DNA from: Mobula hypostoma
Lineage: Eukaryota
DNA length: 64,000 nt
Assembly: GCF_963921235.1 (NCBI RefSeq)
Contig: NC_086107.1
Span: 87,730,001-87,794,000 of the forward strand
Direction of reading: 5' to 3'
Below, one piece after another: positions 1,047 through 9,402 of the stretch. Under the pieces are notes generated by a model. It had not been told where the DNA came from, made no database searches, and saw nothing but the letters and a program-made list of their open reading frames with translations. The position numbers and the translations under genes were made by a program. Each line of letters opens with the position of its first letter. The stretch's first letter is position 1.

Positions 1047-2083
1047 TGTATACAGAAGACTCTGAATGTATTCTATCTTTCTTATGTATATTTCTTGTTA
1101 CAGTGAAATACACAGCCCTGCCTCTTGTCTTCTCCAAATTGGTAGTTCATCCATCCAGTGGATCAAGGAGCCCTTGTGCCAGACCACCACGTCTAGAGTG
1201 TCTATGTCTCTGCAAAACAGAGAATGCAGCAATCCCTCATTTCCCTCCTATTGGCTAGAAAGACCTACAGTTTACAAATCAGTGAATTCGGATGAATCAA
1301 GAACAGTGGAAATAGACAAACCAATTACTTGTTCTTGCCAGGTGATGGAGGTGGCCATTTTTGTGAGACTATCCTTGCAGCCCCCCATTTTGTGAACTCT
1401 GAATTGATTCTTGCTCTGGGATAATCTAATCAGAGCAATTGAAAGCAGACACAAGGAGTTTCAGCTAATGGCCGGTTAAACCTCACACCGTTCTCAGACG
1501 AGTAGCTATTTATTACATAAGGTGGCAGGCTTGCTGGAGAAGCAATCCGTCATCTGGTTAGACTCAGTGTTTGGGTCACCTAGTTTAACTGGTTTGAACC
1601 AGAGTTGAAAGGAACAAAGGCACAAGGCTGGGGGCAGAAACCATAGAACAGTGCTGGTTGTATCCCTGGACCAGAGCCAATAAGAAGGTGACTCAGGTAG
1701 GTCAGGTGACCTTGAGCCAATGGGATGGAGATGCATCAGTTGAACTGTTGAGGAACACTATAAGAATCAGGAGTTTCAAATAGGAGGGGCAATAACTCGC
1801 CGACAAGCAGAGACCGACCATCATGGATGTGGAAGACCCCATGGGCATGTGGAGATCTGGACCACGAGTAACACCTAGACTCCTTTCCCAGGTGGTACCT
1901 TTTTTCTTCACTGTCTGTTCATGAAGGGTCAGGGTATCCTAGTGGGTGTGCACACAAATAGTTAGTTTGTGAATCTACATGCTTTTTAGCTTTTTAGCTT
2001 TTTAGTTCAGACAATAAAGGTTACTTGTTGGTAAGTACAGATTCTCTCTGATCATTCTTACTAAGGGGTAGATCCTTATTACA
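1047..2083 (+). mobile_element. 5' LTR of retrovirus-like provirus
   Basis: Starts TGTA where the Rex1 fragment stops and ends TTACA at 2083; CCAAT x2 (~1677, ~1717), TATAAG (~1759), AATAAA 2013-2018; followed by a PBS. Left boundary inferred because there is no second LTR to compare. Confidence 0.7.
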
Positions 2084-2087
2084 AAGT

Positions 2088-2105
2088 TGGCGTCCCTGGA
2101 TGGGT
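2088..2105 (+). promoter_or_regulatory. Primer binding site complementary to tRNA-Asn 3' end
   Basis: TGGCGTCCCTGGATGGGT vs TGGCGTCCCTGGGTGGGC (complement of vertebrate tRNA-Asn(GTT)-CCA), 16/18 match, 4 nt after the LTR CA. Confidence 0.85.
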
Positions 2106-7300: not shown

Positions 7301-9239
7301 TGGGTACAACAGTTGGAATTGGAGAAAGAGGCCAGTTATGTGGCAGCCCATTAAATAGGAAAGAAGCAGCAACAGAGAAAGCCTATTTGGACTCAAAAGT
7401 CAGTCCCATTGAATTGCCCAGGACAAAGAGTGATGATTAAAATACACCAACACATCTCATTTTTAAGATGTTCTGGAGCATGCTGATATTAAGGGAGAGG
7501 AGGTGTTGGAGTTGTTAAAATACATTAGGACAGATAAGTCCCCGGGGCCTGACGGAATATTCCCCCGGCTGCTCCACGAGGCGAGAGAAGAGATTGCTGA
7601 GCCTCTGGCTAGGATCTTTATGTCCTCGTTGTCCACGGGAATGGTACCGGAGGATTGGAGGGAGGCGAATGTTGTTCCCTTGTTCAAAAAAGGTAGTAGG
7701 GATAGTCCGGGTAATTATAGACCAGTGAGCCTTACGTCTATGGTGGGAAAGCTGTTGGAAAAGACTCTTACAGATAGGATCTATAGGCATTTAGAGAATT
7801 ATGGTCTGATCAGGGACAGTCAGCATGGCTTTGTAAAGGGCAGATCATGTCTAACAAGCCTGATAGAGTTCTTTGAGGAGGTGACCAGGCATATAGATGA
7901 GGGTAGTGCAGTGGATGTGATCTATATGGATTTTAGTAAGGCATTTGACAAGGTTCCACACGGTAGGCTTATTCAGAAAGTTAGAAGGCATGGGATTCAG
8001 GGAAGTTTGGACAGGTGGATTCAGAATTGGCTTGCCTGCAGAAGGCAGAGGGTTGTGGTGGAGGGAGTACATTCAGATTGGAGGATTGTGACTAGTGGTG
8101 TCCCACAAGGATCTGTTCTGGGACCTCTACTTTTCGTGATTTTTATTAACTACCTGGATGTGGGGGTAGAAGGGTGGGTTGGCAAGTTTGCAGACGACAC
8201 AAAGGTTGGTGGTGTTGTAGATAGTGTGGAGGATTGTCAAAGATTGCAGAGAGACATTGATAGGATGCAGAAGTGGGCTGAGAAGTGGCAGATGGAGTTC
8301 AACCCGGAGAAGTGTGAGGTGGTACACTTTGGAAGGACAAACTCCAAGGCAGAGTACAAAGTAAATGGCAGGATACTTGGTAGTGTGGAGGAGCAGAGGG
8401 ATCTCGGGGTACATGTCCACAGATCCCTGAAAGTTGCCTCACAGGTGGATAGGGTAGTTAAGAAAGCTTATGGGGTGTTAGCTTTCATAAGTCGAGGGAT
8501 AGAGTTTAAGAGTCGCGATGTAATAATGCAGCTCTATAAAACTCTGGTTAGGCCACACTTGGAGTACTGTGTCCAGTTCTGGTCACCTCACTATGGGAAG
8601 GATGTGGAAGCATTGGAAAGGGTACAGAGGAGATTTACCAGGATGCTGCCTGGTTTAGAAAGTATGCATTATGATCAGAGATTAAGGGAGCTAGGGCTTT
8701 ACTCTTTGGAGAGAAGGAGGATGAGAGGAGACATGATAGAGGTGTACAAGATAACAAGAGGAATAGATAGAGTGGATAGCCAGCACCTCTTCCCCAGGGC
8801 ACCACTGCTCAATACAAGAGGACATGGCTTTAAGGTAAGGGGTGGGAAGTTCAAGGGGGATATTAGAGGAAGGTTTTTTTACTCAGAGACTGGTTGGTGC
8901 GTGGAATGCACTGCCTGAGTCAGTGGTGGAGGCAGATACACTAGTGAAGTTCAAGAGACTACTGGACAGGTATATGGAGCAATTTAAGGTGGGGGCTTAT
9001 ATGGGAGGCAGGGTTTGAGGGTCGGCACAACATTGTGGGCCGAAAGGCCTGTACTGTGCTGTATTATTCTATGTTATATGTTCTATGTTCTAATTCCGAG
9101 GTTTGCAGAGCCCTGTGAAATTGTAGCCAAAGCCATTCCATCAGTGTACAAAGTACTGACTTCTCCAGATAAAAGCGGCTGGTATGATATCAACCAGCTG
9201 AAATTGGTGGGGGAGAAACAGGAATGTCATAACAATTGA
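4350..9239 (+). pseudogene. pol: Decayed pol: protease, RT, degenerate RNase H (tether), second RNase H, integrase; split by a CR1 at 7464-9090
   Basis: WDTGGS (~4432); PKPQKQYGFP, NNSPI*PVRKAGGSWRLAIDYQGLNK, FTGLDINDGFW, YVDDLLL (~5356); PFSLEVATTD...LRPVVYAS; IFVDGSS/AQAAELAAV/HSDSKY/KVKAHS..GNRKADELAK; CLICAQHN, GPWTNWQIDYVGPLP; IN tail PRFAEPCEIV...VYKV...WYDINQLK at 9095-9239. Confidence 0.88.
7464..9090 (+). mobile_element. Young 5'-truncated CR1 LINE with uninterrupted 471-codon RT segment (7503-8918)
   Basis: [51 protein letters not shown]; (TTCTATG)n tail; frameshift in a T-run near 8880. Confidence 0.95.
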
Positions 9240-9402
9240 TGTACATGATGGCCCTGATTTGGGAAACTGCTCCAAGAAGATGGAGGGGTGGTTTTCAGTG
9301 GCTGCTTTTCTCTCTATATATTCACTGGGGACTTTTTCCACAGTACTGTATTTTTAGTACATTTCATGTCTTGAACTGTATTGCTGCTGCAAGACAACAA
9401 AT

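Follow-up and report, generated by a model that had tools for sequence, protein, structure and literature searches.

Organization of the provirus

The window analysed here is a stretch of 64,000 nucleotides of Mobula hypostoma (NCBI RefSeq assembly GCF_963921235.1, contig NC_086107.1, forward-strand positions 87,730,001 to 87,794,000), and it contains a decayed provirus extending from 1249 to ~9282 on the plus strand, with a 5′ long terminal repeat (LTR), a primer-binding site (PBS), gag and the order protease (PR), reverse transcriptase (RT), tether, RNase H and integrase. All its parts lie on the plus strand unless stated. We hold with considerable confidence that it is a dead, truncated copy of an abundant endogenous retrovirus (ERV) family, whose RT belongs among those of the canonical retroviruses, most likely in the class III or snakehead retrovirus (SnRV)-like grade ('clade Huo'), and not among the lokiretroviruses (Loki). 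An earlier note on this DNA had described a deep-branching ERV at 1047–9290, most likely loki-like; the decayed provirus and its deep-branching character stand, while its limits and the Loki affinity had to be revised, as reported below.

For comparison with the window copy, 10 sister loci were retrieved from the surveyed genome (G000). The 5′ LTR (1249–2083) belongs to an abundant LTR family and agrees at both ends with the LTR pairs of the sisters. Its start was set at 1249, and not at 1047, because this is where the LTR pairs of the sisters have their corresponding first base; the genome-wide LTR matches, most of which begin at query position ~200 or beyond, also support it. The sister LTRs end four bases ahead of the primer site. 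The PBS, for tRNA-Asn(GUU), is located at 2088–2105 and is the same in six sister copies; G000 contains 21 occurrences of a tRNA 3′ end that can pair with the sister PBS, and all three loci checked were tRNA-Asn genes, while a PBS-derived pattern ending in CCA gave no matches.

The leader and the decayed gag (2106–4300), with a coiled-coil-rich N-terminal part, are 67–77% identical at DNA level to the sister copies, and the list of open frames shows many stops and frameshifts in the gag region. The CCHC knuckle reported in the earlier note is eroded in the window copy, where we read it from the sequence at 4157–4186, and is intact in two sister Gag frames (Pfam zf-CCHC, E 6e-6 and 1e-8). A fragment of a long interspersed nuclear element (LINE), with no strand assigned, lies inside gag at 3277–3645: the family similarity breaks off at 3276 and restarts at 3645–3656, and the insert resembles unrelated repeats in L014, L020, L026 and L028.

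The pol domains were examined by running Pfam profiles on 15 window frames. The broken PR region (4435–4900) gave no Pfam match in these frames; it carries D-T-G at 4435–4443 and weak blastp similarity to the PR regions of P0006, P0098 and P0011. The RT (4910–5455) is spread over three frames, with stops, and matches Pfam weakly (E 0.24); relative to the sisters, ~290 bases of its thumb are deleted at 5452/5465. Both RT motifs pointed out earlier were found by reading the sequence, YVDD at 5356–5367 and PKPQKQYGF at 4910–4936. The latter had been compared with the start of foamy virus RT; however, P-x-P-Q-K-Q-Y is not diagnostic of foamy viruses, as it is also present in the amphibian relatives P0004 and P0006. 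The tether, a degenerate Gypsy-type RNase H with an internal deletion (5465–5850), matches Pfam RT_RNaseH_2 and RT_RNaseH above cut-offs (RT_RNaseH_2 E 4e-7 over window 5385–5651), and EVATTD replaces in it the catalytic DAS of Gypsy. It is followed by a second RNase H of retroviral type (5959–6400), split across two frames and conserving all four acidic-motif positions (VDGSS, AQAAEL, SDSKY and KVKAHS...GNRKADELAK), which matches Pfam RNase_H (E 3e-8 and 4e-4) and, among solved structures, gammaretroviral RNase H on top (E 0.004). The broken integrase (6590–7466) includes the H2C2 motif (Pfam Integrase_H2C2, E 2e-14), the core, recognised from rve pieces, and the start of the C-terminal domain. 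The dead first RNase H, the second one with full motifs and the integrase after it thus agree with what had been seen from the letters alone.

The integrase C-terminal domain is interrupted by a 5′-truncated LINE (7467–9087), which contains a 483-aa open RT frame (RVT_1, E 3e-35) and which, from its RT and its microsatellite tail, we take to be a CR1 element. It is 92% identical to a copy in L024, the sister proviruses continue across the insertion site, and the LINE is younger than the provirus. The integrase tail resumes at 9088 and is 76–81% identical to eight of the 10 sister loci up to ~9282, where the provirus similarity ends. A purine run at ~9275–9290 was considered as polypurine tract (PPT) and rejected, being part of the integrase tail; the PPT of the sisters is a different sequence adjoining the 3′ LTR. 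No match to env and no second LTR copy were found anywhere in the 64-kb window.

The family in the surveyed genome

As the earlier note had proposed, LTR and pol were compared with the genome, and they revealed an abundant family. G000 contains no fewer than 150 matches to its RNase H, counted on the 150 scored of 299 candidates; the LTR gave 2856 first-look candidates, and the 40 that were scored showed 74–78% identity; and 146 matching pieces of env came from 128 scored candidates. In pol, the sister copies are 74–83% identical to the window copy. After pol, they have an env frame with furin site and fusion peptide, a PPT and the 3′ LTR. Most of env is present in five of the 10 sister loci, its start in two, and it is absent in three, while two loci beyond these 10 also carry the family env. 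The layout LTR-PBS-gag-pol-env-PPT-LTR is therefore composed of a 5′ half observed in the window and of env, PPT and 3′ LTR observed in the sister copies. The divergence within LTR pairs (Kimura two-parameter) ranged from 0.044 to 0.171 in five family copies, and the family is, as far as sampled, old and dead.

Some individual copies deserve mention. L011 (G000:C21) is a copy of the same family as the provirus in the window, and its env, at positions 7671–9314, stays open for 548 aa and stops short of the transmembrane (TM) region; its pol is broken and contains a transposon insertion. Four diverged env-like copies, 55–57% identical to the family env, lie on both strands of G000:C5:125504235-125575409, with frames of 405–422 aa containing stops, possibly by local amplification. 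Moreover, four equal-scoring RNase H copies of the family are found on G000:C9 at 200386441, 200410242, 200434043 and 200758812, three of them at a spacing of 23,801 bases, which may reflect either a segment duplicated in tandem not long ago or an error of the assembly.

Placement of the reverse transcriptase

The RT tree was built on 37 rows and 264 columns, taken from 55 aligned rows after removing 12 Gypsy rows, the near-duplicates P0005, P0099, P0136 and P0161, and the most broken copies, L017 and L021. It included three Loki rows, and no foamy, alpha, beta, delta, lenti or Odin rows. Labels were given by eye, comparing RT motifs with Dataset S3 of PMC7947760: P0098 was recognised as SnRV, P0093 and P0094 as teleost Loki, and P0135 and P0161 as lamprey Loki.

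The family was monophyletic (100/99), its sister was the unnamed P0007 (99/96), and both fell in a clade of canonical retroviruses including SnRV (100/97), with Loki apart at 100/100, which speaks against the lineage preferred in the earlier note. The Gypsy rows kept their own side (100/100), so that the RT was not seen in an ordinary Gypsy clade. In approximately unbiased (AU) tests, grouping the family with Loki was rejected (p = 0.008, 39.6 log-likelihood units worse), and so was grouping the family, P0007 and Loki (p = 0.02), P0007 having been added after the tree was seen.

Identities gave the same picture. Over 158 columns, the window RT reaches 47–52% identity with its amphibian, coelacanth and unnamed relatives and 46% with SnRV, against 35–37% with Loki and 24–28% with Gypsy; when the window and L013 rows are taken together, the ranges are 47–57% for amphibian and coelacanth class III-type ERVs and 33–37% for Loki. 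By phmmer, the natural RT frame of L013 scored 262–299 bits with the amphibian, coelacanth and unnamed relatives, 211 with SnRV and 209 with an ostrich ERV, against 149–163 with Loki, 147–154 with foamy viruses, 143–144 with murine leukaemia virus (MLV) and 108–111 with Ty3. The motifs also differ: the Loki RT rows of Dataset S3 (PMC7947760) show (C/M)PFGY, (L/I)xYVDD and, after the LTIDYR motif, W-P-(M/V), where the family has P-T-I-A-T-N-P-E, together with LPQGFH.SP.IFHQ and QY(V/I)DD, like SnRV. Finally, all 12 best Pol matches were dual-RNase-H or retrovirus-type proteins, and the named ones were from vertebrates. The element is therefore, as had been proposed, a retrovirus-type one carrying two RNase H domains, and no ordinary Gypsy. 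The label 'SnRV-like' rests on identity, motifs and nearest relatives, since no supported clade with SnRV was obtained.

Envelope of the sister copies

The protein encoded by env in the sister copies has a furin site, a fusion peptide rich in glycine, and heptad repeats. By eye, the family env has neither CKS17 nor CX6CC, and it gave no retroviral-envelope match in Pfam. In the ESM Atlas, clusters of Fusion_gly (PF00523) and Baculo_F ranked first (0.94) for both env proteins tried. With the model of the full-length env, BFVD returned a baculovirus F protein as best match (E 1e-5), together with F proteins of Mononegavirales and two walleye retrovirus Envs, while the 50 best rows of VIA were all paramyxovirus or pneumovirus F or foamy Env (top Z 8.2, rmsd 4.2 over 143 residues; foamy Env second, Z 8.1). 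Foldseek against PDB gave nothing under E 0.001, the best match being F of respiratory syncytial virus (4e-3), and the wide fold search made with the first env model found nothing but generic coiled coils. We thus predict for the family env a paramyxovirus/pneumovirus F fold; predicted is the proper word, because confidence is low in both env models (predicted local distance difference test score, pLDDT, 43–45 on average). Counting against it are this low confidence and the absence of any sequence match of the env in Pfam or PDB, which leaves the fold with no support at sequence level.

Sequence relatives of this env were found in sharks. An env search gave 16 matches, 10 of which were named and all shark proteins, and in a word-based search both matches (2/2) were from sharks; no named teleost or amphibian protein appeared in either. 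F-type relatives were recorded as 'uncharacterised' proteins of five shark species (P0073, P0075-P0078, P0081, P0084, P0086-P0088, P0074 and P0200). One of these, P0087 (739 aa), seems to be complete, TM region included, and may be another intact or captured env.

Weighing of the alternatives

Several observations do not sit well with the placement in the SnRV-like grade. The base of the canonical RT clade is a polytomy, in which family and SnRV form no supported clade, and SnRV itself leans toward the gamma/epsilon side (89/94). The tether-containing frame P0002 scores equally with Loki (173–179 bits) and SnRV (171). The integrase tree was unresolved, Loki integrases sitting in the same polytomy as the family, and the family integrase scores higher against Loki than against SnRV. 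An F-type env is common to the family and Loki and, in the AU test, grouping the family with Gypsy gave p = 0.053, short of rejection. As for the integrase, it should be added that the Pol relatives are annotated as NYNRIN-like and that the unresolved tree contained no CGIN1 row.

The window element could be the first lokiretrovirus of a cartilaginous fish, or a recombinant in which env, integrase and a coiled-coil Gag of Loki type are joined to a canonical RT. The double RNase H, the F-type env, reported as a Loki feature (PMC7947760), the coiled-coil N-terminus of Gag, which recalls the Loki 'smc' region, and the integrases, which could not be separated, would all suit such an origin. By contrast, RT motifs, identities, tree and AU tests are all contrary, and largely refute it for the RT. 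RNase H, which was compared by scores, starts with DGSS in the family and with DGCS or DGCA in the Loki rows, and five family Gag frames showed no blastp similarity to the N-terminal parts of three Loki polyproteins. The shared traits are, moreover, found elsewhere. The tether plus second RNase H is present in the family and is common to all retroviruses; CmiERV lineage I, by eye, likewise has a coiled-coil Gag; and an F-fold Env has been published for foamy viruses (PMC11468914), with walleye retrovirus Envs among the BFVD matches, therefore an F-type env is no mark of a lokiretrovirus. The env searches, which named only sharks, point the same way, and we regard a Loki origin, entire or in part, as improbable.

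A foamy-like ERV (spuma, clade Tu) appears to us equally improbable. Among solved structures, the RT frame scores foamy RT slightly above MLV RT (154 vs 144 bits), the integrase of prototype foamy virus ties as best PDB match of the family integrase, and foamy Env takes the second place in the fold comparison. Nevertheless, SnRV and the class III-type relatives score 57–145 bits above foamy with the same query, and a query made of the second RT half and the tether scores higher with MLV (146 bits) than with foamy (109 bits). The family Gag has a CCHC knuckle, as seen in the two sister frames, a feature not known from foamy Gag. In Dataset S3, moreover, the foamy and FLERV rows show, by eye, other RT motifs.

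Least credible of all is that the element is an LTR retrotransposon of the Gypsy group that gained a further RNase H and an F env like that of errantiviruses. The borderline AU test and the Gypsy and baculovirus F clusters among the env look-alikes could speak for this reading; it is contradicted by the separate side of the Gypsy rows in the RT tree, by an RT identity of just 19–30% to the two Gypsy rows compared, and by the 12 best Pol matches.

The preferred reading, a provirus of a class III/SnRV-like family, would imply the following history, drawn from retroviral biology. The virus would have primed reverse transcription with tRNA-Asn; its second RNase H would have cut RNA, the first one (the tether) serving as a connection domain; and it would have entered cells through a class I fusogen with the predicted paramyxovirus/pneumovirus F fold. 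The family came to occupy well over a hundred places in the germ line and decayed afterwards. The window copy received later LINE insertions, lost env and 3′ LTR, and is now inactive.

An intact env as candidate domesticated gene

An intact env was found on the plus strand at G000:C2:126459313-126461514 (= L041:314-2515, P0201), as an open frame of 741 codons; in the 733-aa protein that it encodes, a signal peptide, RRRR, a fusion peptide and a TM region can be recognised. Thirteen bases ahead of its ATG there is a pyrimidine tract with AG, resembling a splice acceptor. The provirus belongs to a sister lineage, because its env is 48% identical to the family env. This provirus retains a pol remnant interrupted by stops and frameshifts, with no RT detected in the stretch examined, and a pair of LTRs that are ~78% alike (divergence 0.21 over 288 bases). 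All 12 sibling envs analysed, chosen among the longer ones of 49 matches, are broken, with 3–18 stops and 1–20 frameshifts each. The pairwise ratio of non-synonymous to synonymous differences (pN/pS) was 0.55 between the intact env and the dead ones (0.48–0.61, 12 pairs), and 0.88 among the dead ones (0.67–1.18, 66 pairs).

The env stretch is present in 20 sequencing runs, from seven organisms and 10 studies, and the best of these runs may stem from the very sample used for the genome. Within the frame, 11 pieces from four other organisms show 3.5% difference and are free of gaps; 17 pieces lying outside it show 6.7%, and 15 of these have gaps. They come from 32 pieces listed of 4153, four straddling the frame ends having been dropped, and they are not independent, as the organisms share ancestry. 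Orthology was inferred from identity and not from synteny, the paralogues being 70–82% identical over long matches. None of the runs containing the stretch is recorded as RNA, which does not bear on expression; three runs that we guess to be RNA share 0.45, 0.20 and 0.06 of the env words, a measure of word overlap only.

Since it is intact amid a broken pol and broken siblings, shows reduced amino-acid change and is free of gaps in four other organisms, the env at C2 is likely a domesticated F-type fusogen. We lean slightly toward the wider proposal that this class III lineage, in sharks and rays, had a fusogen of paramyxovirus-F type and that the C2 insertion was domesticated as a spliced single-exon gene of 733 aa, intact in at least five species of cartilaginous fish.

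Many cartilaginous fish bear live young. If the proposal holds, this env would be the F-fold counterpart of the syncytins in cartilaginous fish, and it could either fuse cells, for example in the uterus or the embryo, or serve as a restriction factor that blocks a receptor. It offers, in any case, a concrete candidate for a captured fusogen in these animals. As in the syncytins and percomORF (PMC12813294, PMC8922424), an intact env stands in an otherwise dead provirus, with reduced amino-acid change and in several species; it differs from those captured envs in its predicted F fold (class Ib) and in the absence, by eye, of CKS17. The screen of 40 chondrichthyan genomes in PMC12813294 required the CKS17 motif and would therefore have missed it. 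In the literature searched we found no captured env of cartilaginous fish, the co-option survey of Wang and Han 2020, outside that search, being one that could contain this env; likewise, the passages searched of PMC11521997 show no captured cartilaginous-fish env.

Other repeats in the window

Downstream of the provirus, window positions 9401–9894 contain a separate repeat, which recurs as an insertion in pol (L011, L025) and behind env (L019). Minisatellite arrays occupy 13356–14002 (units of ~57 bases) and 19047–19408 (units of 50–53 bases). By our reading of the translations, with endonuclease and RT frames, LINE fragments of other families lie at 10912–11943 (minus strand), 40213–40914 (plus) and 53138–53902 (plus).

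Comparison with known retroviruses

The lokiretroviruses are defined by an RT position sister to the canonical retroviruses and have two RNase H domains, an Env resembling F and an integrase similar to CGIN1 (PMC7947760). They resemble the window family in the double RNase H, the F-like Env, a coiled-coil region before Gag and an integrase that cannot be separated from that of the family, and are unlike it in RT motifs, in RT position, a joint grouping being rejected by the AU test, and in the RNase H motif. The statement, in the earlier note, that their host list lacked chondrichthyans is correct as far as Fig. S1 of PMC7947760 goes, where they occur in none of six chondrichthyan genomes; the window element does not fill this gap, and their absence from chondrichthyans stands. 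A canonical RT combined with a predicted F-fold Env would make the type of Env unusable for calling a lokiretrovirus. Odin, with dual RNase H, no env and an RT sister to Loki (PMC9040795), differs from the family, in which env is present in sister copies. Gypsy elements (Metaviridae) have a single catalytic RNase H after the RT, whereas the family has a dead tether and a second RNase H.

The nearest Pol relatives, with the same domain order and from other hosts, are P0004, P0006, P0011 and P0089, amphibian or coelacanth proteins called 'NYNRIN-like', and the unnamed P0007. Long and apparently intact ERV Pols of frog, coelacanth and ostrich (P0004, P0005, P0006, P0089 and P0092) are annotated as 'protein NYNRIN-like'; by RT they are class III-type and not Loki. 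SnRV, the best-scoring labelled virus, is like the family in RT motifs and in the 46% RT identity, and unlike it in the integrase, which is far apart, and in the lack of a supported RT clade together.

The relatives of SnRV form clade Huo, found in all major vertebrate lineages (Xu et al. 2018, PMC6001957; PMC12193657). In cartilaginous fish, CmiERV lineage I of the elephant shark clusters with SnRV (Han 2015, PMC4422223), and 2843 clade III RT loci have been counted in six chondrichthyan genomes, most chondrichthyan ERV RTs being of clade III (PMC11089739). Since ERVs related to SnRV or of clade III had already been reported in chondrichthyans (PMC4422223, PMC11089739), the window element is a new family of a known, common kind. 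By eye, CmiERV lineage I resembles it in the RT, in a coiled-coil Gag with CCHC knuckle and in the tether plus RNase H, and has a gamma-type env (CKS17-like stretch, CX6CC) and a different PBS (PMC4422223). The two are not the same, because the window family has instead an F-type env, a PBS for tRNA-Asn and other LTRs. That such close relatives differ in the class of their Env bears on how retroviruses have gained and swapped their fusogens.

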